Assembly (NCBI GenBank): GCA_040880305.1 | Contig: JBBDIP010000043.1 | Location: forward strand, 12,730-76,729 | Source: Bacillota bacterium | GTDB lineage: Bacteria > Bacillota > Sulfobacillia > Fermentithermobacillales > Fermentithermobacillaceae | Direction of reading: 5' to 3' | Length of the DNA: 64,000 nucleotides | Part shown: in pieces, positions 9,633 through 53,145 of the stretch | Position numbering within the stretch: the first letter of the stretch is position 1 | How the letters are laid out: each line of letters begins with the position of its first letter | Made by a program: the position numbers and the translations under genes | The notes under the pieces: generated by a model | Told to the model about the DNA's origin: nothing | Database searches by the model: none | What the model saw: the letters and a program-made list of their open reading frames with translations, nothing else

Positions 9633-9980
9633 GGGGGCGACTAGGGTCGACGTCGGTAGTCGAGTCTGAGCAGCGAGCATGGGTGCCGTGCCCAACAAAA
9701 CGGCAAAACCATAACTGCCAACAACAGTTACGCACTGGCCGCTTAACTAGCGGCCACGGTGAGCGGGGAGACTTCTCTCCTATCCTCGAGTCACCGTCAC
9801 ATAGGAGAGATACTTGGAGGGGGTCGTCCGGGACCCTTCGGGGAATGAGATTCCGGGCTGGCGACACGTAAAGCCCGCTCCGGGGCGCTACGGGCTGCGA
9901 GAACAAATCCGGAGATACGCTCGTAGAGACTGAGATCCGGTTATCTTCGGACGAGGGTGCGATTCCCTCCGCCTCCACCA
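9633..9980 (+). ncRNA. ssrA: tmRNA (SsrA)
   Basis: The 5-prime GGGGGCG pairs with the 3-prime CGCCUCC-A-CCA (tRNA-Ala-like acceptor with G3:U70). T-arm GAGGGUGCGAUUCCCUC. Internal tag ORF 9702-9746 encodes GKTITANNSYALAA plus stop. Confidence 0.9.
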
Positions 9981-42236: not shown

Positions 42237-42314
42237 TCTTGGTCAAGGAGAGCTGATGGATTGGAGTGGGGCCCGATTTTGGGCCCCATGTTCAATAGAG
42301 GAGGAATCTCTGGC

Positions 42315-43925
42315 ATGGCCGATCATCAGGAAGTTATGTCCCGCAATGGCATGGTATCCAGCGCCCACCCGCTTGCCTCACAGGCCGGGGTCGGGATGCT
42401 GAGGAGCGGCGGGAACGCGGTGGACGCCGCAGTTGCCGCCGCGTTCGCCATCGGCGTGGCAGAGCCTTTCACCTCCGGTATCGGTGGTGGAGGGTTCATG
42501 CTGGTGAGGATGGCCGAAGCGAGTGCGGGACGGAACCAGACCGCTTTCATCGACTACCGCGAAGTCGCTCCCAAATCTGCCACCCCCAATATGTACGAGG
42601 TCGTTAACGGCCAGGTATTAGGCCGGGAGAACGAGATAGGACACAAGGCGGTGGCCGTGCCCGGGTCGGTGGCCGGGATGGCCAAGGCCCTTGAACTGTA
42701 CGGGACCAAGTCGCTATCCGAAGTCATTGAACCTGCCGCCGAACTTGCTGATAGAGGGATCCCTGTCGGACCCTTCCTCAAGACGGCCATGGGCCGAAAC
42801 GTCGACAGGCTGCGCAAGTTCTCTCACGCCGCGCGCATCTATCTGAAGGGGGGACAACCCTTCGAGTTGGGAGACACCCTGGTCAACCCCGATTACGCCC
42901 GCACTTTGCGGTTGATTGGGGAGAAAGGCCCCGAAGCCTTCTACCAGGGGGAGATCGCTCAGGCCCTAGCACGGGAGATGGAGGCCCACGGCGGACTCGT
43001 GAGTCTCGAGGATCTGAAGTCGTACCGGCCCGTTCTTAGGCAACCTGTTAGAGGGACATATCGGAGCTACGAGATCATATCGTCCCCTCCGCCAAGTTCA
43101 GGTGGCACACATGTGGTTGAGATTTTGAACATGCTGGAGGGTTTTGACGTGCGCGGGATGGGGCACGGTTCTCCCGAATCGCTGCACCTTCTGGCTGAGG
43201 CGTTTAGGCGCGCCTTCGCTGACCGCCAAGCGTTCATGGGCGATCCCGCTTTCGTGAAGATCCCCCTCCAAGGCTTGCTCAGCAAGGATTATGCTCGTGA
43301 CAGGATCGCAGGTTTCGATCCGGCGCGTGCTGCGAGAGGTGACGCCGGGCGCCCCTCCAACTACGAAGGCCACAGCACGACCCATCTTTCGGTCATGGAT
43401 AGCCGGGGAAACGCGGTCTCGCTCACTCAGACAGTCGAGAGTTTCTTTGGTTGCGGTGTGGTCTTGCCCGGATATGGGTTCATCTTGAACGACCAGATGC
43501 ACGACCTGGACCCCGTGCCGGGCGGTCCCAACAGCGTGGCGCCGGGAAAGAAACCGCTGTCCAGCATGTCTCCTACAATTGTACTAAGAGACGGCCGGCC
43601 ATTCCTCGCGGTGGGCTCACCAGGCAGCAAGAGGATCATCACAGCGGTTGCGCAAGTCCTCTCCAACGTACTGGACCACGGCATGGGCATTCAGCAGGCC
43701 ATCAACTCGCCGCGTATTCATGTGGAGGATGACCCGCTGTTCCTGGAAGGGCGAATCGCGGAGAGCACGCGAGAGGGACTCCGGGCAAGAGGCCACCATC
43801 TGGAGATCAGGTCCGACCTGGACTATTTCTTTGGGGGAGCGCACGGAGTACTTCTTGATGTTCGGTCCAGCGAGTTTCACGGCGGAGCGGACCCCAGAAG
43901 GGACGGCAGGGCGGTAGGGGTCTAG
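42315..43925 (+). CDS. ggt: Gamma-glutamyltransferase family protein
   Basis: Motifs GGNAVDAAVA, GIGGGGFM, and the autoprocessing site HSTTHLSV (Thr nucleophile). Start at the ATG at 42315 behind GAGGAGGA. No signal peptide. Confidence 0.9.
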   Translation: MADHQEVMSRNGMVSSAHPLASQAGVGMLRSGGNAVDAAVAAAFAIGVAEPFTSGIGGGGFMLVRMAEASAGRNQTAFIDYREVAPKSATPNMYEVVNGQVLGRENEIGHKAVAVPGSVAGMAKALELYGTKSLSEVIEPAAELADRGIPVGPFLKTAMGRNVDRLRKFSHAARIYLKGGQPFELGDTLVNPDYARTLRLIGEKGPEAFYQGEIAQALAREMEAHGGLVSLEDLKSYRPVLRQPVRGTYRSYEIISSPPPSSGGTHVVEILNMLEGFDVRGMGHGSPESLHLLAEAFRRAFADRQAFMGDPAFVKIPLQGLLSKDYARDRIAGFDPARAARGDAGRPSNYEGHSTTHLSVMDSRGNAVSLTQTVESFFGCGVVLPGYGFILNDQMHDLDPVPGGPNSVAPGKKPLSSMSPTIVLRDGRPFLAVGSPGSKRIITAVAQVLSNVLDHGMGIQQAINSPRIHVEDDPLFLEGRIAESTREGLRARGHHLEIRSDLDYFFGGAHGVLLDVRSSEFHGGADPRRDGRAVGV

Positions 43926-43979
43926 CTCGGTAGCAGCGAATTCGGTAAGGCGCGAACTTCGACACCGGGAGGGCTGTAC

Positions 43980-45326
43980 ATGGAGAAGCAAGACTGGACG
44001 GCATTTGAGCAGTACGTTCAACAGGTTATGACGGACAACCACATGGTCGGAGCGGCGGTGGCGGTAGGCGACCCAAAGGAAGTCCTGTACGCCAAGGGCT
44101 TTGGTGTCAAGAATGTGAACTTGGGGGAGCCGGTGACGCCCGAGACGATTTTTGGCTGCGCCTCCGTCAGCAAGTCCTTTACCGCGATGGCCATATCTCA
44201 ACTGGCCGACCGGGGGCTACTCTCGGTTGACGATCCGGTCACAAAGCACATCCCCGAGTTCAGCCTCACCGGCGTGGGCGACATGCAAGACGTGAAGATG
44301 CGCCACATCCTGTCCCACACCACCGGACTGCCTCCTATGAAAAGGCGCCAGGACATTACCGGTTTTGACCGGCACGTGGAGTATCTGGCCTCCGCCGAGT
44401 ATGAGCTACTGGGCAAGCCGGGTGAGTACTTCAGCTACTGCAACGACACGTTTCTTCTAAACGGCCTCATCATCCAGCGCAAGACAGGCCAGATATACAG
44501 GCGCTACATGACGGGGCACATCCTGGATGCAGCGGGGATGAACAGGTCTACCTATAACCTTGAGGAGCTGGAGAAGCTCGGGGACGTCTCGACCCCGTAC
44601 GTGTACAACAAGAAGACCGGAGCGCACGAGGAGCAGCCCTGGCCCGTTCTGGGGACTTACGAGGTGGGCGGGGGAGTGCGATCCTGCGTGCTGGACCTCA
44701 TGAAGTACGGCCAGGTCTACCTCAACGGGGGTGTTGCGGCTAACGGCACGCGCATTGTCTCGGAAGAGGGCCTCCGGCGCATGTGGACGACTCCCATGCA
44801 CAGGACTGCACGCAAGACCGACTACAATTTCGCTCTCGGTGTGACGCCTGACTACGACGGTCGCGGGATCACCCTGGTCGAGCACAGCGGTGGTCAGCCA
44901 GGTGTCTCGTCCAATTTCGGTTTTACCCCTGAGAAGGGGATAACCGCGGCGGTCCTCACCAACGTCACCGGCGTCCCGGCAGCGGCCATCTGGCTTGCGG
45001 CGGTAAACACAGTCCTAGGCCTACCCCTTTGGACTTTGAAGAGCCTCGAGACCGAGTGGTCTGCGCCTTTGGATCACGCGACCAGGTTCTGTGGCAATTA
45101 CCGGAGCGACGAGGGGGGCAACATCACGCTCGTTATGGAAGACGGCGCCCTCAAACTCACGATGGAGGGCGAGGAGTTCCCGGTTAAGGCCAGCGACGAG
45201 CGAACCCTGTTCTTCGAGGCCCAGGGCCAGCAGCAGGTGCTGCGGTTCTACTTCGACGAGAAGAAAGACTGCGCCCATCCGTGGGCTGTGTTGGCCCACT
45301 CCAGGATGCTGAGGAGTACGCGATGA
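43980..45326 (+). CDS. Serine hydrolase (beta-lactamase/PBP4-like, class C fold)
   Basis: SxxK motif ASVSKSF. Confidence 0.85.
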   Translation: MEKQDWTAFEQYVQQVMTDNHMVGAAVAVGDPKEVLYAKGFGVKNVNLGEPVTPETIFGCASVSKSFTAMAISQLADRGLLSVDDPVTKHIPEFSLTGVGDMQDVKMRHILSHTTGLPPMKRRQDITGFDRHVEYLASAEYELLGKPGEYFSYCNDTFLLNGLIIQRKTGQIYRRYMTGHILDAAGMNRSTYNLEELEKLGDVSTPYVYNKKTGAHEEQPWPVLGTYEVGGGVRSCVLDLMKYGQVYLNGGVAANGTRIVSEEGLRRMWTTPMHRTARKTDYNFALGVTPDYDGRGITLVEHSGGQPGVSSNFGFTPEKGITAAVLTNVTGVPAAAIWLAAVNTVLGLPLWTLKSLETEWSAPLDHATRFCGNYRSDEGGNITLVMEDGALKLTMEGEEFPVKASDERTLFFEAQGQQQVLRFYFDEKKDCAHPWAVLAHSRMLRSTR

Positions 45327-45700
45327 GGATGGCACGTGCCCGTGTTGAGTACTGCACGCTCTACCTGAATCTTTCTGCCGTCCGGGGCACCGTGTTCGAC
45401 GGTGGCAGGCTTCCTCCCACGATTGAAGAGTTTGACGGCGCGCTGGCGGCATACGAGCAGGGCGGCAGGACGGCTTTTGTGCCCACCTACCCCGGGTGGT
45501 GGCCCCAAGCCTGGGCTGGTTTCTTTGGTGGCTGCTGGGCGGACGAGGACGGGTCCTTCACCCCCGGCAGACCGGGAAACGTGCGGGTTGGCTCGGGTAT
45601 CTGGACAGGATCAAGGCAGCGTTTGCAGCCGTATGGTTGGGCGAGAAGAGCCCGGACCAGGTTCTACGAGCCTCCACCTAGCCTCGGTTCTGCGAGGTAG
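45323..45700 (+). pseudogene. Possible remnant of an extracellular solute-binding protein gene
   Basis: Two frames carry SBP-like text: TIEEFDGALAAYEQGG...WWPQAWAGFFGGCWADEDGSF, and in another frame YLDRIKAAFAAVWLGEKSPDQVL. The stretch is too short and frame-broken for an intact gene. Confidence 0.3.
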
Positions 45701-45788
45701 TTCCAGTAGGCCTAAAGCCCGCCTAGTCTTGACAGGGTTTGCCACCCGGGGATATAGTTCACCTAACCAGCAGTGTTTGTTTGCGCCT

Positions 45789-45905
45789 GATCGCTGAATC
45801 TCTCCTTTCGGAGGGAGCGGGGGAACCGGTTCCTTGGGGCTAATCGCTTTCGCGTAGGGCTAATCCTTTTCAGCCCGAGCCCGTCAGCTAACCTCGTAAG
45901 CGTGG
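45789..45905 (+). promoter_or_regulatory. ydaO/yuaA-type (c-di-AMP) riboswitch aptamer
   Basis: GATCGCTGAATC...GCGGGGGAACC...GGGGCTAATC...GGGCTAATCC...CCCGAGCCCGTCAGCTAACCTCGTAAGCG matches the remembered conserved core of the ydaO motif. The 5-prime CGCT pairs with the 3-prime AGCG. A GC hairpin follows at 45926-45941. Confidence 0.8.
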
Positions 45906-46060
45906 AAAGGGAAGGCGGCCTCATTGGCGGCACCTGCCGCCTCGTCTAGAGCCTCTTCCCGGCCAGTCACCGCACACGGTCTTTGCAGCTATTTCAGTCC
46001 TTGATCGTTTGCGGGTTCAAACTACCCCCTGCTGGCACTACTCCGGGGGAGGTATGTCAT

Positions 46061-47032
46061 TTGCCGCACATCTGCGTCGTCGTCAACCACAGGAGCTCGG
46101 CGTTCTACGCTCATGATCCGCATGCCAAGGAGCAGTCCCAGGTGACAACAGACGCCGTCTGCACTGCCCTGGGCGAGCTGGGCCATAAGGTCACAGTGGT
46201 CGAGGTGAGCCCGTCGCTGCTCGACCGCCTCAATACAGTGAACCCCGATGCCGTGTTCAACCTGGCTACGGGCTACCGGACCAAGAGGGACCAAGCGAAC
46301 ATAGCTGCGATGCTCGAAATGTCAGGTTTCGCCTTTACCGGCTCGGGTCCTTTCAGCCACCTGCTCGGCCTCTACAAACATCTGACCAAGGCCACCATGG
46401 GTATCTACGGGATACCTACTCCCAAGTTCAAGGTTGTCCAGGACACGGCGCTTGCCGGTCCCGAGATCACTGAGGGCCTGGATTTCCCCGTGATCGTAAA
46501 ACCTGCCGCCGAAGGGTCCAGCGTCGGCATCTCGGAATCTAGCGTGGTGTCCGACCCAGACGCTGCTCTTGCCCAGGTCAGGCTCATTGCCGAACGCTAC
46601 GGCCTGCCCGTCCTCGTCGAGGAGTTCGTGAATGGACGGGAGTTCACCGTGGGTCTCGTCGGCTATCCACAGCCGCAGGCGCTGCCGGTGGAGGAGATCG
46701 TGTTCAAGAAGGGTCGCATGTACACCTACGATGTGAAGTCGCGCGACGCTGTGGAGCCGGTATGTCCGGCGGAGATACCTCCCGAGAGCGTGGTCGAACT
46801 CCAGGACCTCGCTTTAAAGACCTTCAATGCGGTAGGCTGCACGGATTTGGCCAGAGTGGACATCCGCGTGTCGTCAGAAGGAAAACTCTACGTGCTTGAG
46901 ATTAACACCCTGCCCGGCCTCATGCCGGGCTACAGCGAGCTCCCCAGGATGGCCGGAAAGGGCGGGTTCACGTTTAGGGCTCTCGTGGAACGGATCCTAG
47001 AGGGCGCACTCAAGAGGGGGGTTGCATCATGA
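46061..47032 (+). CDS. D-Ala-D-Ala ligase-family ATP-grasp ligase (operon gene 1)
   Basis: Motifs FPVIVKPAAEGSSVGI and LEINTLPG. Start set to the TTG at 46061 behind GGGGGAGG, by alignment with the paralogs at 49857 and 60029. Confidence 0.8.
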   Translation: MPHICVVVNHRSSAFYAHDPHAKEQSQVTTDAVCTALGELGHKVTVVEVSPSLLDRLNTVNPDAVFNLATGYRTKRDQANIAAMLEMSGFAFTGSGPFSHLLGLYKHLTKATMGIYGIPTPKFKVVQDTALAGPEITEGLDFPVIVKPAAEGSSVGISESSVVSDPDAALAQVRLIAERYGLPVLVEEFVNGREFTVGLVGYPQPQALPVEEIVFKKGRMYTYDVKSRDAVEPVCPAEIPPESVVELQDLALKTFNAVGCTDLARVDIRVSSEGKLYVLEINTLPGLMPGYSELPRMAGKGGFTFRALVERILEGALKRGVAS

Positions 47033-48168
47033 ACGCGGAGAGAGTCGATATGGCAGTCGCAGGTCTTCCTGCATTCGCCGTCCTCGGGATCGGCAACGGA
47101 GGCCAGGCCATGGCCGGCTACCTTTCCCTACGTGGGTTCCCGGTGAATCTTTGGAACCGGTCGCCGGGCAAGGTGGAAGCGCTCAACGCTTTGGGCGGCA
47201 TACACCTTGAAGGCGCGATAGAGGGCGTGGGGGTCCCACGTCTGGTCACTACAGACCTGTCGTTGGCGATCCAGGATGTCCGAGTCCTCATGGTGACTGT
47301 CCCGGCGTCGGGCCACCGCGATGTGGCGAGGATGCTTGCGCCGCATCTTCACGACGGCCAGGTGGTTGTCCTAAACCCGGGAAGGACGGGAGGGGCGCTG
47401 GCCTTTAGGAGCAACCTGGAACGCGCGGGTTGCCAGGCCGACGTGACCGTGGCCGAGACCAACACGTTCATCTACGCGAGCCGCACGCTTGAGCCCGGAA
47501 AGTCGCATGTCTACGGTGTGAAGCAGCATGTGAGCTTGGCCGCTCTTCCGGCCGAGATGACCATCTCGGTCCTCCAGACAATACGGACCGCCTTTCCTCA
47601 GTTCGTGCCAGGTGAAAACGTGCTGGCTACAAGCCTGGACAACATGGGGGCCATTTTCCATCCTGTACCCGCGCTGTTCAATGTCACAAGGCTGGAGGCG
47701 GGAGAGAAGTACGAGCACTACATGGGCGGGATCTCGAGATCGGTTGCCCGTCTGCTCGAACGTCTCGACGCGGAACGCATGACCATTGCGCGGGCGCTGG
47801 GCGTGAACGCGCGTTCAGCCCTTGAGTGGCTGCGCGACACCTACGGAGTCAGCGCGGGCAGCTTGTACGACGGTATACAGAGCAACACGTCGTACCGCGG
47901 GATACTGGCGCCGGAATCCCTGGATACACGCTACATTCATGAGGACGTGCCGTTCAGCTTGGTCCCGCTGGTCCACTTGGCGGAGTTTGTCGGCCTGCGC
48001 GCCCCGGTACTCCGGTCAGTCATCTCAGTGGCGGAAGGTCTTCTGGGGCAGGACTTCTGGGGCCAGGGCAGGGACGCGCGGGAGATGGGGATCGAAGGCA
48101 TGAGCCTGGGAGATCTCAAATTGCTCGTAAAGGAGGGCGTTGCAGATTGTCCAGAAATCGCCGGATGA
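47029..48168 (+). CDS. NAD/NADP octopine/nopaline (opine) dehydrogenase family protein (operon gene 2)
   Basis: Rossmann VLGIGNGGQAMAGYL. The length and a C-terminal helical domain fit opine dehydrogenases. ATGA overlap with gene 1. Confidence 0.75.
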   Translation: MNAERVDMAVAGLPAFAVLGIGNGGQAMAGYLSLRGFPVNLWNRSPGKVEALNALGGIHLEGAIEGVGVPRLVTTDLSLAIQDVRVLMVTVPASGHRDVARMLAPHLHDGQVVVLNPGRTGGALAFRSNLERAGCQADVTVAETNTFIYASRTLEPGKSHVYGVKQHVSLAALPAEMTISVLQTIRTAFPQFVPGENVLATSLDNMGAIFHPVPALFNVTRLEAGEKYEHYMGGISRSVARLLERLDAERMTIARALGVNARSALEWLRDTYGVSAGSLYDGIQSNTSYRGILAPESLDTRYIHEDVPFSLVPLVHLAEFVGLRAPVLRSVISVAEGLLGQDFWGQGRDAREMGIEGMSLGDLKLLVKEGVADCPEIAG

Positions 48169-49829
48169 TCGGACTGTCTTTGGGTGACTGCGTGCACGTG
48201 GCGGGAGTCCTGAATTTCCTGGACTTGGCGGAGCAACAGGGCTACCGGACGGTCTTCGCCGGTGCGGCGAAATCGCCGGAGGAGGCAGCGGAAATAGCGG
48301 AAAAGGAACGGGCGGAAGTGCTTGCTGTTGGATACAGGTTGGACCCGGACGCCGCAAGGAACCTGTTTCGGAGGCTAAAAGAGGCTCTCGCGGAGCGAGG
48401 CATATCACCTGACCTCCTGTTTGGGGGAACCCCGCCTGTCGCTGAAGTAGCTGAAGCCGAAGGTATGTTCCGCGCCGTGTTTTCCGGTCGTGAGGACGTC
48501 GACGAGGTCATCGCCTTCCTCCGCGGCGTCTCTTCGGCCAAGCGGCGCGAGGATTACCCCGCTGACGTGGTCGGCCGCATCGAGAGCAAGGCGCCGTATC
48601 CGATTCTGAGGCACCACTTCGGCCTGCCATCGATGGATAACACGCTGCGAGGTGTGCGGGAGATCGCCGAGTCAGGCGTCCTGGACGTGATATCCCTGGG
48701 CCCGGACCAGAACGCGCAAGAGTGCTTCTTCCGGCCCGACGAGATGGACCACGACCAGGATGGATCGGGCGGAGTCCCGATGCGCTCTTCCGCGGACCTT
48801 GAGGCGCTGTACGAGGCCGGAAGGCGCGGCAATCACCCTTTGATGCGATGTTACAGCGGAACGCGCGACGTAATTCGCTTTGCCGAAGTGCTCCGGACCA
48901 CCATACACAACGCATGGGCCGCAGTGCCGCTGTGCTGGTATAACGTGCTGGACAGGCGAGGTCCCAGAGGCGTTGCGGAGTCGATTGAGGAAGGGCAGCG
49001 TTCGATGGCCTGGCACGCCGAGAGGGGCATACCCGTCGAAGTCAACGAGTCCCACCACTGGAGCCTTCGCGACGCGCCTGACGTGGTGGCCGTCGCGGCT
49101 TTCTACCTGGCAGCCTACAACGCGAAGAAGGCCGGCGTGCGTAACTACGTGGCCCAGTTCATGTTCAACACTCCTCCTGGCACGACCGCGGCGATGGACC
49201 TCGGCAAGATGCTGGCCAAACTGGAACTCATCCGCACGCTTGAGGGAGAGAACTTCAGGGTATGGCGACAGGTCAGGGCGGGGCTCGCTAGCTTCCCGGT
49301 CGACCTGGATCAGGCGCGAGGGCAGCTGGCTACATCCACTTTGGTGAGCATGAACCTGCGTCCCCACATCGTGCATGTAGTGGGCTACTGCGAGGGACAG
49401 CACATCGCGCAGGCGTCCGAGGTCATCGAGAGCTGCAAGATAGCCCGGGGAGTAATCCGCAATTGCCTATCCGGGATGCCCGACATGACAAAGGACACCG
49501 CGGTGCAGCGCAGGCGCGACCGGCTGGTGGAAGATGCCCGCACGCTCCTTAACGCGATAGAGGAACTGCACGACATGCGCCGCGGGGAGGCTGCAGGCAG
49601 CGACCCATTCACCGACCCCGTGACGCTGGCCCTGGCGATCCAAACCGGCCTGCTCGACGCCCCTCATCTTACGGGCAATCCGCATGCGTGCGGCGCCATA
49701 TCAACCTCTATCGTAGGCGGAGCCTGTGTCGCGGTCGACCCCGTCACGCGCGCGCCGCTGATCGAAGAAGCCAGGGTTGGGGCGATATTGGGCTCGGTCC
49801 CCGGCACCCGGCTGGCTGCCGGGCTTTAG
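48147..49829 (+). CDS. B12-binding-like domain fused to a mutase-like TIM-barrel domain (operon gene 3), function unknown
   Basis: The N-terminus IGLSLGDCVHVAGVLNFLD resembles the DxHxxG cobalamin loop with one extra residue. The C-terminal roughly 430 aa loosely recall the GlmE/KamD large subunits (WYNVLD..., GIPVEVNES...). It overlaps the gene 2 end. Confidence 0.55.
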   Translation: MSRNRRMIGLSLGDCVHVAGVLNFLDLAEQQGYRTVFAGAAKSPEEAAEIAEKERAEVLAVGYRLDPDAARNLFRRLKEALAERGISPDLLFGGTPPVAEVAEAEGMFRAVFSGREDVDEVIAFLRGVSSAKRREDYPADVVGRIESKAPYPILRHHFGLPSMDNTLRGVREIAESGVLDVISLGPDQNAQECFFRPDEMDHDQDGSGGVPMRSSADLEALYEAGRRGNHPLMRCYSGTRDVIRFAEVLRTTIHNAWAAVPLCWYNVLDRRGPRGVAESIEEGQRSMAWHAERGIPVEVNESHHWSLRDAPDVVAVAAFYLAAYNAKKAGVRNYVAQFMFNTPPGTTAAMDLGKMLAKLELIRTLEGENFRVWRQVRAGLASFPVDLDQARGQLATSTLVSMNLRPHIVHVVGYCEGQHIAQASEVIESCKIARGVIRNCLSGMPDMTKDTAVQRRRDRLVEDARTLLNAIEELHDMRRGEAAGSDPFTDPVTLALAIQTGLLDAPHLTGNPHACGAISTSIVGGACVAVDPVTRAPLIEEARVGAILGSVPGTRLAAGL

Positions 49830-49856
49830 GCGGACTGAGTAGGAGGGGAAAGTGCC

Positions 49857-50900
49857 ATGAGTTACAGTCTGCGGATCGCGGTCCTGTGGCGCCCGGGCCG
49901 CAACGTCGAGATGCAGCAAGCGTTTTCTGGCGGGGCGATTGCTGACGATGCGCAGGAAGAGGCGGAACTACTGAGGGACGGCCTGGCCGACGCTGGCCAC
50001 CACGCGTTCCTGGTCCAGTGGCGCAGAGACGATATTGCGAGAACACTTCACGATCTGCGACGCTTCTCGGTCGACCTGGTGTTCAACGCCTCGTCGGACC
50101 AGGAGGTCTGTCTGCTTCATGCAGCGGGCATCCCTTATTGCGGGTCGGGACCTGATCTGGTCACCACCAGCAAGGCTACCCGAAAGAAAATCCTCATGTA
50201 TGCCGGTCTGCGGACATCGCCGTTCGTCGTTATTGGCCGAGAGGGCAAGGTGACGGGCGGCGGATTGACTCTCGAGGATCTCCGAAGGGGATGGGAGCCA
50301 AGGAAGCCTCTCCAATACCCGCTGTTTGTCAAGCCGATCGCTGGACGGGGAAGCTCCGGGGTCTCCGACGACTCGATCGTCTACGACCTGCCATCGCTTA
50401 TCCGGCAAGTCGAGATGATCGTCTGCCGTCTGGGGCAGGGGGCCCTCGTCGAGAACTACCTCGTGGGGCAGGAGGTCACAGTGGGGATCATCGGCGATCC
50501 CCCGGTGGCGCTGACTCCGCTCGAGATCGAGTACAACGGAGCTAAGACCAATACATACGAGCACAAGATGGACAAGGAGATAATGCACTGCCCGGCACGG
50601 TTGTCCCCTCTGGCCACGACCAGGGTCCAGGATACCGCCAGGCGAGTCTTCGACGTGCTTGGAGCGCGCGACTTTGCCCGGGTCGACACCATCGTCGACA
50701 AAGAAGGATTGCCCCACGTCCTGGAGATTAACACGTTTGCGGGTCTTCACATCCTTACGGGAATCGAGAAGCGCGCGCACGCCAGTTACATCGGTGTAAT
50801 GGCCAAAGCCAGCGGGCTCTCGCGCGCGGCCCTCCTGGACGCCATCACGTCTTCGGCCATGACGCGGTCTCGGCGGTCCGCGGCAAATGCCTGCCCTTGA
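49857..50900 (+). CDS. D-Ala-D-Ala ligase-family ATP-grasp ligase (operon gene 4)
   Basis: Motifs YPLFVKPIAGRGSSGV and LEINTFAG. RBS GGAGGGG precedes the start. Confidence 0.75.
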   Translation: MSYSLRIAVLWRPGRNVEMQQAFSGGAIADDAQEEAELLRDGLADAGHHAFLVQWRRDDIARTLHDLRRFSVDLVFNASSDQEVCLLHAAGIPYCGSGPDLVTTSKATRKKILMYAGLRTSPFVVIGREGKVTGGGLTLEDLRRGWEPRKPLQYPLFVKPIAGRGSSGVSDDSIVYDLPSLIRQVEMIVCRLGQGALVENYLVGQEVTVGIIGDPPVALTPLEIEYNGAKTNTYEHKMDKEIMHCPARLSPLATTRVQDTARRVFDVLGARDFARVDTIVDKEGLPHVLEINTFAGLHILTGIEKRAHASYIGVMAKASGLSRAALLDAITSSAMTRSRRSAANACP

Positions 50901-50936
50901 CTTGGACGGTTATGAGCCTGAACAGGGCAACTTCCC

Positions 50937-50965
50937 TTGACCCTATCTACCCTTTCGGGTAGAAT
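50937..50965 (+). promoter_or_regulatory. Sigma-A-type promoter for the tRNA array
   Basis: TTGACC, 17-nt spacer, TAGAAT. It lies about 50 nt upstream of tRNA-Trp. Confidence 0.6.
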
Positions 50966-51017
50966 ATTGCATGCGGCCGGGCGACCGGCTTTGCATGTTT
51001 GGCAGAGTGCTAAGCGT

Positions 51018-51091
<74 letters not shown>

Positions 51092-51093
51092 GC

Positions 51094-51169
51094 GCGCCTG
51101 TAGCTCAGTGGATAGAGCACCTGCCTTCTAAGCAGGGAGTCGAAGGTTCGATTCCTTCCAGGCGCGCCA
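51094..51169 (+). tRNA. trnR: tRNA-Arg (UCU)
   Basis: Acceptor GCGCCTG/CAGGCGC. Anticodon loop CTTCTAA. CCA is encoded. It lies 2 nt after tRNA-Trp. Confidence 0.9.
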
Positions 51170-51190
51170 AATAGGGTTGTTGAGATGCGT

Positions 51191-51268
51191 GGTGGATGTA
51201 GCTCAGTTGGTTAGAGCGCCAGGTTGTGGCCCTGGAGGCCACGGGTTCGAGCCCCGTCATTCACCCCA
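51191..51268 (+). tRNA. trnH: tRNA-His (GUG)
   Basis: Extra G at position -1. Anticodon loop TTGTGGC. CCA is encoded. Confidence 0.9.
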
Positions 51269-51300
51269 ATTTTGATGGATCGTTCAGAGTCCCGGTTCGG

Positions 51301-51377
51301 GCGCCCGTAGCGCAACTGGACAGAGCTACAGACTTCGGATCTGTGGGTTGCAGGTTCGAGTCCTGCCGGGCGCACCA
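51301..51377 (+). tRNA. trnR: tRNA-Arg (UCG)
   Basis: Acceptor GCGCCCG/CGGGCGC. Anticodon loop CTTCGGA. CCA is encoded. Confidence 0.88.
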
Positions 51378-51383
51378 TTTTGC

Positions 51384-51458
51384 TGGGGCGTGGCCAAGCG
51401 GTAAGGCATCAGCCTTTGGAGCTGACATCCGCAGGTTCGAACCCTGCCGCCCCAGCCA
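51384..51458 (+). tRNA. trnQ: tRNA-Gln (UUG)
   Basis: Acceptor TGGGGCG/CGCCCCA. Anticodon loop CTTTGGA. CCA is encoded. Confidence 0.9.
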
Positions 51459-51463
51459 AGTTT

Positions 51464-51538
51464 GGGCCATTAGCTCAGTGGTAGAGCACCCGCCTTTTAA
51501 GCGGGGAGTCGATGGTTCGAGTCCATCATGGCCCACCA
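51464..51538 (+). tRNA. trnK: tRNA-Lys (UUU)
   Basis: Acceptor GGGCCAT/ATGGCCC. Anticodon loop CTTTTAA. CCA is encoded. Confidence 0.9.
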
Positions 51539-51569
51539 CGATTCTCCGAGAATATAATAAGGAGCAGGA

Positions 51570-51655
51570 GCGAGGGTGTCGGAACTGGCAGACGAGCTGG
51601 ACTTAGGATCCAGTGCCCTTAAGGCGTAGGGGTTCAAATCCCCTCCCTCGCACCA
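51570..51655 (+). tRNA. trnL: tRNA-Leu (UAG)
   Basis: Long variable arm. Anticodon loop CTTAGGA. Acceptor GCGAGGG/CCCTCGC. CCA is encoded. Confidence 0.9.
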
Positions 51656-51741: not shown

Positions 51742-53145
51742 GTGGTAAAGGTCAACGTGGAAAAACTTGACGGTTCCAAAGTATCTCTCACTGTTGAAGC
51801 CCCCGCAAGTGTCGTGGACACCGCGCTCGACAAGGCATACAAGACCGTGGTCAAACGGATTAACGTCCCCGGGTTCCGTCGCGGTAAAGCGCCCAGGTAC
51901 ATACTGGAGCGTCACTTCGGTAAGGAAGTACTGTACGAGGACGCCATGAAGGAAGCGCTGCCCGAGCAGTACGTCGAAGCGGTGAAAGAAGCCAAGATTG
52001 AGCCGGTGGACGACCCCGATTTCGACGACGTCCACTTCAAGCAGGGCGAGCCCCTGACCTTCAAGGCCACGGTCTTTGTCATCCCGGAAGTGAAACTTGA
52101 CGACTACAGCGACTTATCGGTTGCCTACGAACCCCCCTTAGTCAGCGATGAGGATGTGAATGGGCAGGTCAATTACCTGCGAGAGAGGATGGCCGAACTC
52201 CGCCCGTTGGACGAAGGCCAGGTTCTGGAAGCGGGCGATTCGGCCTCTTGTCATGCAAAGGGCATCGAAGGCGGCTCGTTTAAGGCGGAGATCGACCAGG
52301 ACTTCTCCTACGTCGAGGTGGGCCGCGAGAATGCCTTAGTCCCGGGCATGGGCGAGGCTCTTAAGGGCATGAAGAAGGGCGAGGTCAAGGAGTTCACCGG
52401 CACATACCCTTCCGATGAAGTCAAGGAAGGCGAGACTAAGCAGCCCGAACAGCCCAGAGATTCAAAGTTCCAAGTAGAGGTGAAGGAGTGCCACAGGAAG
52501 CACTTCCCCTCTGAGGAAGATTTTCTCAAGAACCTCTCAAAGGCGACGATGGATGAAGTGAGGGAGGACCTGCGGGTTCGCATGCTGGCTGCCAGGACCG
52601 ACACTGCAAGGCGGCAGCAGAGCGACAAGGTTGAGGACGCCCTCCTTGCCAAGGCCACGGTGGAGATTCCCCAGGTCATGATCGAGCGCAAGCAGGAGGA
52701 GCTCTTTGAGCGGTTCGCCCAGAGACTTCAGGACGCAGGCGCCAATGTCGACTCCTACCTGCGGTCTACGGGTCGGGCTCCGGAAGACATCGCCAAGGAC
52801 TTCTTGACCGAAGCCGAAAAGGAAGTTAAGCGGGAACTGGTGCTTGACGCCGTGATTTCCAAAGAGAATGTCAAGGTCTCCGATGAGGCCGTCAATAAGG
52901 TAGTGGAGGCGCTGGCCAGACAGACCGGCAAGGACGTTGAAGCGGTGAAGACTACTCTGGAGCTTCGCGGAGCGCTGGCCGACATTGAGCACAACCTCCT
53001 GAGAGTCGAAGCTCTCAAAAAGATCGCAGTCCTCGCTGCCGAGAAAGCGGGCGTCCCTCTACCCGAGGATAAGTCTGCGGAGCCATCGGAAGAGAAGCCT
53101 GCTGAGCCGTCGGAGGAGAAGCCCGCCGAACCGGAGGCCAAATGA
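51742..53145 (+). CDS. tig: Trigger factor
   Basis: N-terminus VKVNVEKLDGSKVSLTVE and FRRGKAPR. AAGGAGG RBS. Repetitive C-terminal tail (EPSEEKPA repeated). Confidence 0.95.
   Translation: MVKVNVEKLDGSKVSLTVEAPASVVDTALDKAYKTVVKRINVPGFRRGKAPRYILERHFGKEVLYEDAMKEALPEQYVEAVKEAKIEPVDDPDFDDVHFKQGEPLTFKATVFVIPEVKLDDYSDLSVAYEPPLVSDEDVNGQVNYLRERMAELRPLDEGQVLEAGDSASCHAKGIEGGSFKAEIDQDFSYVEVGRENALVPGMGEALKGMKKGEVKEFTGTYPSDEVKEGETKQPEQPRDSKFQVEVKECHRKHFPSEEDFLKNLSKATMDEVREDLRVRMLAARTDTARRQQSDKVEDALLAKATVEIPQVMIERKQEELFERFAQRLQDAGANVDSYLRSTGRAPEDIAKDFLTEAEKEVKRELVLDAVISKENVKVSDEAVNKVVEALARQTGKDVEAVKTTLELRGALADIEHNLLRVEALKKIAVLAAEKAGVPLPEDKSAEPSEEKPAEPSEEKPAEPEAK

Follow-up and report, generated by a model that had tools for sequence, protein, structure and literature searches.

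What does a bacterium control with a sensor for cyclic di-AMP (c-di-AMP) when the genes behind the sensor belong to no described pathway? This question is raised by a 64,000-nucleotide (nt) stretch of DNA from a Bacillota bacterium (contig JBBDIP010000043.1, positions 12,730 to 76,729 of the forward strand; hereafter the window), in which a predicted c-di-AMP riboswitch precedes four genes, G1 to G4, encoding a Ddl-like ATP-grasp ligase, an opine dehydrogenase, a mutase-like fusion of a B12-binding domain with a TIM barrel, and a second Ddl-like ATP-grasp ligase. The answer that we favour, and to which we give an even chance of being right as a whole, is that a c-di-AMP OFF-switch controls synthesis of an N-carboxyethyl derivative of an acidic amino acid, which would probably serve as an osmolyte or potassium counter-ion. 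The features concerned, numbered from the first nucleotide of the window, are as follows.

45729..45758, plus strand: Sigma-70-type promoter, TTGACA-18 nt-TATAGT (11 of 12 consensus positions matched; 0.1 expected in shuffled sequences)
45782..45916, plus strand: predicted c-di-AMP riboswitch aptamer, Rfam RF00379, ydaO/yuaA class (full-model covariance match)
45909..45960, plus strand: two-tier hairpin, candidate expression platform (minimum-free-energy and centroid folds, z = -2.25)
45951..45960, plus strand: CCUCC-like pyrimidine segment GCCUCUUCCC, possible anti-Shine-Dalgarno (RNAduplex energies)
46045..46052, plus strand: Shine-Dalgarno of G1, GGGGGAGG (read from the sequence; the TTG at 46061 lies 8 nt downstream)
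46061..47032, plus strand: G1, putative Ddl-like ATP-grasp ligase, 323 aa (Pfam, NCBIfam, PDB relatives)
47029..48168, plus strand: G2, NAD(P)H opine dehydrogenase of the predicted mODH subclass, 379 aa (Pfam, PDB, residue signature)
48147..49829, plus strand: G3, fused B12-binding domain (about residues 1-130) and GlmE-like TIM barrel, 560 aa (AlphaFold2, Foldseek, hhalign)
49857..50900, plus strand: G4, Ddl-like ATP-grasp ligase, the second and more divergent of the two, 347 aa, accessory and variable (Pfam, NCBIfam)

Is the leader RNA what it appears to be? A sequence-only reading of this DNA had recognised blocks of the ydaO/yuaA core at 45789-45905. With the entire window searched against Rfam 15 by cmscan, RF00379 matched within the region of 45700-46060 in which that reading had expected it, scoring 89.0 bits (gathering score 38, E = 1.7e-19); the match spans model positions 1-134 of 134, with not one pair flagged as non-canonical. 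The conserved blocks lie where they had been placed: CGCTGAATC at 45792-45800, GCGGGGGAACC at 45817-45827, GGGGCTAATC at 45836-45845 and CCCGAGCCCGTCAGCTAACCTCGTAAGCG at 45874-45902. The aptamer is on the same strand as the genes, 24 nt behind the promoter and 145 nt ahead of G1. We compared the window with 17 genome loci recovered with G3, plus further contigs (numbered L001 and onwards), and found a TTGACA-18-TATAAT-like promoter about 25 nt ahead of the aptamer in L001, L002, L004, L024 and L026. Among eight orthologous leaders, 8 of the 30 predicted aptamer pairs carry compensatory changes. In its full-length match, conserved blocks, position in a 5' leader behind a promoter and covariation among orthologs, the RNA at 45782-45916 resembles the RF00379 class and is, as far as these comparisons go, a genuine predicted c-di-AMP riboswitch aptamer. 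It differs from the class in its expression platform, a nested hairpin that uses the aptamer 3' tail and lacks a U-tract, and in the genes that it precedes. Class descriptions name potassium and amino-acid transporters, cell-wall remodelling and osmotic-shock response genes (PMC7266159), whereas a B12-type mutase, an opine dehydrogenase and ATP-grasp ligases stand here.

The GGCGGC-ACCT-GCCGCC hairpin noted earlier at 45926-45941 is present in the sequence, nested within the larger two-tier hairpin. The outer stem of the latter pairs the purine-rich 3' tail of the aptamer (GGGAAGG.GGCCU) with a pyrimidine-rich downstream arm (AG.GCC.UCUUCCC). This nested architecture is common to all eight leaders, the arm sequences differing, and in each the aptamer tail pairs with a downstream CCUCC-like segment and so encloses the GC hairpin. 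As a canonical terminator the hairpin at 45926-45941 was rejected, having no U-tract; it is the inner tier of the two-tier structure. A terminator scan of five related leaders found none in four and a terminator-like U run only in L026. RNAduplex gave -17.2 kcal/mol for the aptamer tail with the pyrimidine segment and -19.3 kcal/mol for that segment (45951-45960) with the G1 Shine-Dalgarno, and this double complementarity makes the segment a possible anti-Shine-Dalgarno. Since these duplex energies are only moderately better than those of composition-matched shuffles, we treat the tail, anti-Shine-Dalgarno and Shine-Dalgarno arrangement as a working model: switching could possibly proceed through such a three-way exchange, or through a degenerate terminator as in L026.

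The genes follow one another as had been described, all on one strand. The stop of G1 and the start of G2 share an ATGA (47029-47032), the end of G2 at 48168 overlaps the TTG start of G3 at 48147, and a 27-nt gap containing a Shine-Dalgarno separates the end of G3 (49829) from the start of G4 (49857). An alternative in-frame ATG for G3 at 48165 would create a second ATGA overlap. The overlapping coding regions imply a single transcript, and no internal terminator was found within the scanned interval 49700-51100, which covers the G3-G4 junction, G4 and the downstream flank. For G1 the start is the TTG at 46061, in agreement with the gene call on the near-identical contig L022, and the UUUGCCGCAC context around it (46054-46063) is kept in L001. 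An ATG directly 3' of the Shine-Dalgarno (46054-46056) is out of frame and was rejected as the start. The G1 ortholog of L024 shows ATGATG with a stop 10 codons on and no normal in-frame start; a frameshift, an assembly error or a short upstream open reading frame could account for it.

Does the riboswitch belong to these genes? RF00379 was found upstream of G1-G2-G3 in 8 of 8 distinct loci (89-98 bits), namely the window with L022, L001, L002, L004, L024, L026, L037 (Candidatus Fermentithermobacillus carboniphilus) and L038, and in 0 of 9 fully scanned loci that have G2-G3 without G1 (L006, L008, L010, L012, L014, L015, L016, L018 from Halothermothrix orenii, and L020 from Anoxybacter fermentans). 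Thus the riboswitch tracks G1 exactly among the loci examined, and G1 stands ahead of the pair in Bacillota alone, in a group most of whose members are uncultured. The pair itself reaches much further. G2 lies immediately ahead of G3, usually overlapping it, at every locus with enough upstream sequence, in Bacillota, Chloroflexi/Anaerolineae, Bacteroidota, Ignavibacteria and archaea (Methanomicrobia, Thermococci), and is a deep conserved core. That the genes are conserved together is thus borne out, with the refinement that in Bacillota the riboswitch accompanies G1-G2-G3, that G4 is variable and that the core pair spans many phyla without the riboswitch.

These comparisons also bear on a deflationary account, by which the aptamer is a remnant, or regulates G1 alone, and the downstream enzymes are unrelated housekeeping neighbours. 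The non-canonical expression platform would be at home in such an account. However, promoter, aptamer, hairpin and gene order are all conserved across the eight loci at 53-77% protein identity, the aptamer carries compensatory base changes and the overlapping coding regions imply one transcript, so that we give this account very little credence. In the Halanaerobiales, H. orenii (L018) and A. fermentans (L020) have the pair without the riboswitch, preceded by an EF-G paralog and 370-450 nt of unassigned upstream sequence and followed by a Crp/Fnr-family regulator (L018 9635-10315; L020 9659-10345), which may represent a different control of the same pair.

What chemistry does the core pair encode? 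G2 matched Pfam Octopine_DH (PF02317) at 148.8 bits (gathering score 30) and, at 285.7 bits (E = 5e-84), PDB entry 1bg6, the N-(1-D-carboxyethyl)-L-norvaline dehydrogenase of Arthrobacter (CENDH/ArODH), and it keeps the catalytic His202, Arg292 and Asp297 (ArODH numbering). Six opine dehydrogenases from a 67 °C hot-spring metagenome (mODHs) were characterised recently (PMC10787698; Appl Microbiol Biotechnol 2024;108:101). Unlike ArODH they prefer pyruvate with acidic L-amino acids (L-Asp, L-Glu, cysteate, homocysteate and 2-aminopimelate), a specificity that the authors termed 'unprecedented'; Arg111 and Gly198 (ArODH positions) govern it, as double mutants swap specificities, and Arg35 marks a preference for NADPH. 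The R111/G198 signature (R119 and G207 in G2) occurs in all 22 G3-linked G2 proteins, those of the window and 21 orthologs, and in mODH-45, -47 and -48, where ArODH has Ala and Asn. Position 35, Arg in the mODHs and Ile in ArODH, is R or K in all 22. In overall identity G2 is at 39% to ArODH and at 40-48% to mODH-45, -47 and -48, and the Anaerolineae ortholog of L009 reaches 59% to mODH-47, all mODH sequences having been taken from an optically read supplement with small errors. Judging from the R111/G198 signature and position 35, G2 is predicted to couple pyruvate with an acidic L-amino acid, and membership of the mODH subclass narrows its possible chemistry.

The mODHs, whose sequences were assembled from reads, were investigated as biocatalysts without genomic context, whereas here a B12-type mutase adjoins the dehydrogenase at every locus examined. 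Their KM for L-Asp is high (15-25 mM), and 3-methylaspartate was not among the substrates tested (PMC10787698). The high KM suggests a related, non-canonical acid as the native substrate, for which the product of the adjacent mutase is an obvious candidate. One Chloroflexi locus has two tandem G2 paralogs between MutL and G3 (L014 5801-7950), which are 48% identical to the G2 of the window and both carry R111/G198.

A metallophore-like product was another of the earlier suggestions. A polycarboxylate amine would chelate metals, as is generally known, and an opine dehydrogenase is the last enzyme in the pathways to opine-type metallophores such as staphylopine or pseudopaline (general knowledge; introduction of PMC10787698). 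But G2 falls in the mODH/ArODH branch and not in the CntM branch, c-di-AMP is not a metal signal, and Pfam searches of the window and at least 15 related loci found no CntL/nicotianamine-synthase-like, exporter or importer gene in the operon or its flanks. With no CntL-like gene and no transporter, a metallophore is most improbable.

The partner of G2 in the pair, G3, was modelled with AlphaFold2 from 38 homologs (mean predicted local distance difference test score 87.9, predicted template-modelling score 0.82). In a Foldseek search of the PDB the top matches were the E chains of glutamate mutase, 6h9e_B and 1cb7_B (E ~1e-14; target-normalised template-modelling score 0.64-0.65; about 433 aligned columns at 15-16% identity), followed by ornithine 4,5-aminomutase, lysine 5,6-aminomutase and methylmalonyl-CoA mutases, and the N-terminal domain matched the small B12-binding subunits 2yxb, MutS 1i9c_A and 4r3u_D. 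An NCBIfam search of G3 gave no match, and Pfam PF06368 (Met_asp_mut_E) gave none for the G3 of the window at E <= 0.01 and was only weak in homologs, the best among those scanned being P0255 at 27.5 bits (gathering score 26.6). When the G3 family was compared by hhalign with seven GlmE sequences (one from the annotated cluster of E. coli O157:H7 and six from plasmid records), it aligned over 387 columns with a probability of 78% and E = 1.8e-5; the seven-sequence alignment was required, as a single-sequence comparison with E. coli GlmE had given just 5.7% probability. The alignment is anchored by GGVP/NGLP, PL.R.YSGT.D/PLQIRHGTPD, FPxD and G.LD.P, and the Glu that contacts the adenosyl ribose (GlmE E329/330) is kept as G3 E416.

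Indirect support for cobalamin dependence comes from the neighbours and fusions of the family elsewhere. An ATP:corrinoid adenosyltransferase (PF02572, 209-213 bits; CobA/BtuR) lies directly upstream of G2-G3 in the archaeal metagenome-assembled genomes L006 and L010, the Chloroflexi locus L014 has upstream of the pair the gene for MutL (PF13941, 533 bits), an accessory protein of glutamate mutase, and three natural fusions (P0267, P0269 and P0272) join a G3-like protein to MutL. A profile search of 1.84 billion representative proteins returned 266 clusters at 50% identity (E <= 1e-30), and tblastn of G3 against plasmids found no match. Proteins of 600-636 aa, P0308 and P0285 among them, form a sister group that matches in the barrel alone and has zero Pfam hits. 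Glutamate mutase (GlmS/GlmE, EC 5.4.99.1; 1cb7, 6h9e) and G3 are thus alike in barrel fold, cobalamin His, GG, FPxD and adenosyl-ribose Glu, and in the linkage or fusion to MutL and corrinoid adenosyltransferase. They differ in that G3 shares only 15-18% identity, combines the S and E parts in a single chain, has Cys-x-His for Asp-x-His and other residues at the substrate-binding positions, and lacks a methylaspartate ammonia-lyase partner. We regard G3 as a putative adenosylcobalamin (AdoCbl)-dependent isomerase of an uncharacterised family.

What, then, do the two ligases contribute? Their ATP-grasp nature is plain from Pfam Dala_Dala_lig_C (150 bits for G1 and 81.6 bits for G4), and the nearest solved relatives of both are Ddl enzymes (best match of G1, 134 bits); G4 is 31% identical to G1 orthologs. 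Both score below every NCBIfam Ddl and Van cut-off, G1 reaching 193.8 and 163.6 bits against Ddl subfamily models with cut-offs of 243 and 245.65, and G4 at best 93.5 against 243. When aligned with E. coli DdlB from the annotated Sakai genome, they conserve K97, K144, E180, K215, R255, D257, E270, N272 and S281 (DdlB numbering), which cover ATP- and Mg-binding and catalytic positions. They depart from Ddl in that G1 orthologs have TGYRTK(K/R)DQAN for the HGxxGEDG loop, miss Y216 and have Glu or Asp for L282, and in that G4 has an additional 8-residue insert. The HGxxGEDG loop, the omega-loop Tyr216 and Ser281-Leu282 are what we take to be the specificity elements of Ddl. With sub-cut-off scores and altered specificity elements, G1 and G4 were both rejected as housekeeping Ddl (EC 6.3.2.4) and are therefore better described as putative carboxylate-amine ligases, not bona fide D-Ala-D-Ala ligases. 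A G1-like gene of Tissierella sp. Yu-01 (41% identity) was rejected as an ortholog of the system, since it adjoins a DctM transporter and has neither riboswitch nor G2-G3. For all four proteins, Pfam, PDB, AlphaFold2 and Foldseek agree with the families first assigned (two Ddl-like ATP-grasp proteins, an opine dehydrogenase and a mutase-like B12-binding/TIM-barrel fusion); no curated equivalog was reached and none of the proteins maps to a characterised pathway. None of the outcomes that the sequence-only reading had named as refuting it was therefore observed, whether for the covariance match, the protein families or the linkage of the genes.

The kinship of G1 and G4 with D-Ala-D-Ala ligases invites a role in cell-wall remodelling, in which the ligases would make unusual dipeptides or side-chain additions and G2 and G3 would supply a non-canonical, for example branched acidic, amino acid. 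The riboswitch class does regulate cell-wall enzymes (PMC7266159; PMC9960051), gamma-glutamyltransferase and beta-lactamase/D-aminopeptidase-family genes lie just upstream in the window and in L001, and one G3 homolog, P0258, carries a weak Peptidase_M15 tail. However, those upstream genes precede the operon promoter and the synteny is found only in close relatives, no mur or pbp genes are linked, the G2-G3 pair is present in murein-less archaea (L006 and L010) and in Gram-negative phyla, and G1 and G4, as described above, miss every Ddl cut-off and have altered specificity residues. A cell-wall role is in our judgement unlikely.

Where G1 is absent, the pair is often adjoined by another amide-forming enzyme, in different phyla. 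AsnB-like proteins directly follow it at three loci (L008 4414-5763, L015 9654-10997 and L010 8075-9418). Their glutaminase domain is degenerate, with a weak Pfam match, and as they begin with MAGIAGI or MPGIAGI, they lack its catalytic Cys2. They recall AsnB relatives of the beta-lactam-synthetase type, which form intramolecular amides. A complete AsnB-like protein occurs in L016 and a D-glutamate-cyclase-like protein (PF14336) in L010, and in P0255 G3 itself is fused to an ATP-grasp domain of the glutathione-synthetase (GshB)/RimK type. Such recurrent amide-forming partners suggest that the pathway is biosynthetic and that the G2/G3 product has its carboxylates amidated, ligated or cyclised.

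The same neighbourhoods speak to the opposite direction of flow. G3 and G2 might degrade an amino acid or balance redox through it, as a sink for NAD(P)H comparable to that of invertebrate anaerobiosis, or cleave environmental N-carboxyalkyl amino acids, the riboswitch then being a lineage-specific addition. Opine dehydrogenases are reversible, the hosts appear to be anaerobic by their names (Tepidanaerobacter, Halothermothrix, Anaerolineae, Methanomicrobia), and glutamate mutase is classically catabolic (PMC4682846). But in none of the loci examined is the pair linked to a catabolic partner such as methylaspartate ammonia-lyase, mesaconase or a transporter; the enzymes that recur beside it spend ATP to form amides, as would be expected of biosynthesis; and c-di-AMP control is atypical for catabolism. 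A catabolic or fermentative role accordingly seems improbable to us, though not remote.

Taken together in a single scheme, the biosynthetic reading would run as follows. The Sigma-70-type promoter at 45729-45758 would drive a leader that folds into the c-di-AMP aptamer, and binding of c-di-AMP would most likely switch G1-G2-G3-G4 off, as in characterised members of the class, which are OFF switches tied to potassium, osmolyte and cell-wall genes (PMC7266159). Expression would then take place at low c-di-AMP, a state linked to potassium shortage or hyperosmotic stress. G3, probably AdoCbl-dependent, would take an acidic amino acid, or the N-carboxyethyl derivative of one, and rearrange its carbon skeleton or shift one of its groups. 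G2, of the NADPH type, would couple pyruvate reductively to the amine of an acidic L-amino acid, with an N-(1-carboxyethyl) polycarboxylate as the result. G1 and G4 would then form amide bonds on the opine scaffold, a ligase role that appears to fall elsewhere to AsnB-like amidotransferases, D-glutamate-cyclase-like proteins or fused ATP-grasp domains of the GshB/RimK type. As the product we propose a small organic solute, which would be a compatible solute or else an anionic potassium counter-ion.

Microbial solutes include anionic potassium counter-ions in thermophiles and neutral amides elsewhere, and a polycarboxylate or its amides would fit. This fit, together with the link to c-di-AMP, makes an osmotic or potassium-balancing role our best guess. 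In logic the scheme resembles two known systems. The osmolyte N-acetylglutaminylglutamine amide (NAGGN) is derived from amino acids by an ATP-grasp ligase and/or an AsnB-type amidotransferase, and the pyrrolysine enzymes PylBCD combine a radical mutase, a Ddl-like ligase and a dehydrogenase. The gene set here is homologous to neither, having no acetyltransferase and no radical-SAM PylB.

Several observations weigh against this scheme. Some concern the cofactor and the substrate of G3. Its Pfam B12-binding score of 30.7 bits is just under the gathering score of 32.1, and alignment by hidden Markov models to solved B12 domains shows CxHxxG and YRL in place of the DxHxxG and SxL motifs: Cys15 takes the place of the Asp and Y63-R64-L65 that of SxL, while His17, Gly20 and the GG at 93-94 are kept. 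Both the Cys-x-His-x-x-Gly (window 48186-48206, residues 14-20) and the YRL are invariant in 38-40 homologs from several phyla. We know of no B12 enzymes with this Cys-x-His-x-x-Gly variant. In addition, all four glutamate-binding residues are replaced from E. coli GlmE to G3 (R67 to H157, R99 to Q191, R148 to Y236 and E170 to A258), in a mapping for which the hhalign probability of 78% allows a register error of 1-2 residues; the GlmE substrate residues are presumably Arg66, Arg100, Arg149 and Glu171 in Clostridium cochlearium numbering. Other observations concern control and function. No canonical U-tract terminator was found after the aptamer in the leader of the window, most G2-G3 loci have neither the riboswitch nor an obvious osmotic-stress context, many hosts of the pair are non-halophilic, the operon has no transporter or further osmolyte gene linked to it, and a polycarboxylate could serve other roles.

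Invariant basic residues (R155, H156, R234, R271, R274, R308 and R377) lie close to the replaced sites of G3. On its cofactor side, then, G3 looks like an AdoCbl mutase, as far as can be read from its residues, but its substrate pocket differs. As a true glutamate mutase it was rejected, because it does not conserve the substrate residues and has no linked ammonia-lyase. Two orders of reaction can be envisaged. In the first, G3 would make a branched acidic amino acid (compare the conversion of Glu to 3-methylaspartate) to which G2 would then couple pyruvate; in the second, G2 would first make N-(1-carboxyethyl)-Asp or -Glu and G3 would rearrange that opine. In favour of the first order stands the high KM for L-Asp of the mODHs; in favour of the second, the loss from G3 of the amine-binding Glu (Ala258) and of the Arg triad.

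A stronger statement can also be framed, namely that G3 represents a new class of AdoCbl isomerase, marked by the fusion of S and E parts and the Cys-x-His cobalamin motif, in obligate partnership with an opine dehydrogenase for acidic amino acids, the two making, with capping enzymes of the ATP-grasp or AsnB type, 'opine-type' solutes that in Bacillota would be under direct c-di-AMP control. The substrate of G3 could then be the N-(1-carboxyethyl) imino acid, with room for an N-substituent provided by the change of Glu171 to Ala. We offer this class only tentatively and think it more doubtful than probable. Were it real, B12 radical chemistry would for the first time be connected with osmotic or potassium homeostasis, the mODH enzymes would gain a physiological role, and anaerobic bacteria and archaea would have a previously unseen family of solutes.

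How new is the system? That the gene set belongs to no described pathway, as had been surmised, agrees with full-text literature searches, which found no description of it, although an earlier passing mention is possible and the primary gene-association lists of the riboswitch class were not covered; nor did they find any work linking the riboswitch, a B12-type isomerase and an mODH-type opine dehydrogenase. The riboswitch appears to be a new member of a well-known class with regulated genes that are new for the class, and the operon appears to include a B12-type isomerase family not yet characterised, whose obligate partner is a subclass of opine dehydrogenases described only recently. Few AdoCbl-dependent isomerases are known, and the fused G3 family, with its altered cobalamin motif and its spread over at least five phyla, is a candidate for new radical chemistry. 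For the mODHs, whose biological role has so far been lacking, the genomic link of G2 to G3 provides a testable hypothesis of the native substrate. The riboswitch, for its part, offers a physiological handle seldom available for orphan pathways. Expression is predicted to rise at low c-di-AMP, and the product would be expected in cells under salt or potassium stress. If the scheme as a whole holds, some anaerobic bacteria would make an undescribed small acidic solute upon an osmotic or potassium stress signal, and de novo solute synthesis would join transport in the c-di-AMP regulon.

The flanks of the operon add detail on G4. This gene is present in the lineage of the window and in L038, and so is not unique to the window, but is absent from L001, L002, L004, L024, L026 and L037; four further contigs may carry the quartet, on indirect evidence. 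Behind it, at 50937-51655, a promoter-like TTGACC-17-TAGAAT (50937-50965) precedes an array of seven tRNA genes (Gly-TCC, Arg-TCT, His-GTG, Arg-TCG, Gln-TTG, Lys-TTT and Leu-TAG), followed by the gene for trigger factor (51742-53145) and then, on the related contigs L022 and L038, by clpP and clpX. L038 has the full quartet at 65-73% protein identity with the same synteny of tRNA array and trigger factor. L001 is as close to the window as L038, yet its tRNA array lies directly 3' of G3. As G4 stands between G3 and the tRNA array in the window and L038 and is missing in L001, genes have been gained or lost at the junction of G3 and the tRNA genes.

Upstream, on the same strand (42261-45326), the gamma-glutamyltransferase gene (TIGR00066, 516 bits) is accompanied by that of the beta-lactamase-family serine hydrolase, which has weak matches to D-aminopeptidase and AmpH models; the synteny is shared with L001. 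Both genes lie ahead of the operon promoter, which leaves a functional link unproven. Between them and the promoter, 45327-45700 holds the remnant of a gene for an SBP_bac_8 solute-binding protein. The contig L022, about 99% identical to the window, has this gene intact (391 aa), and the window is without L022 2392-2719 and 2952-3437, reflecting either a strain-level pseudogene or an assembly collapse. Two incidental RNA features came from the same searches, an FMN riboswitch on the minus strand of L007 (5988-6124) and, at 9633-9980 of the window, a tmRNA gene (137.6 bits) with the tag peptide ANNSYALAA.

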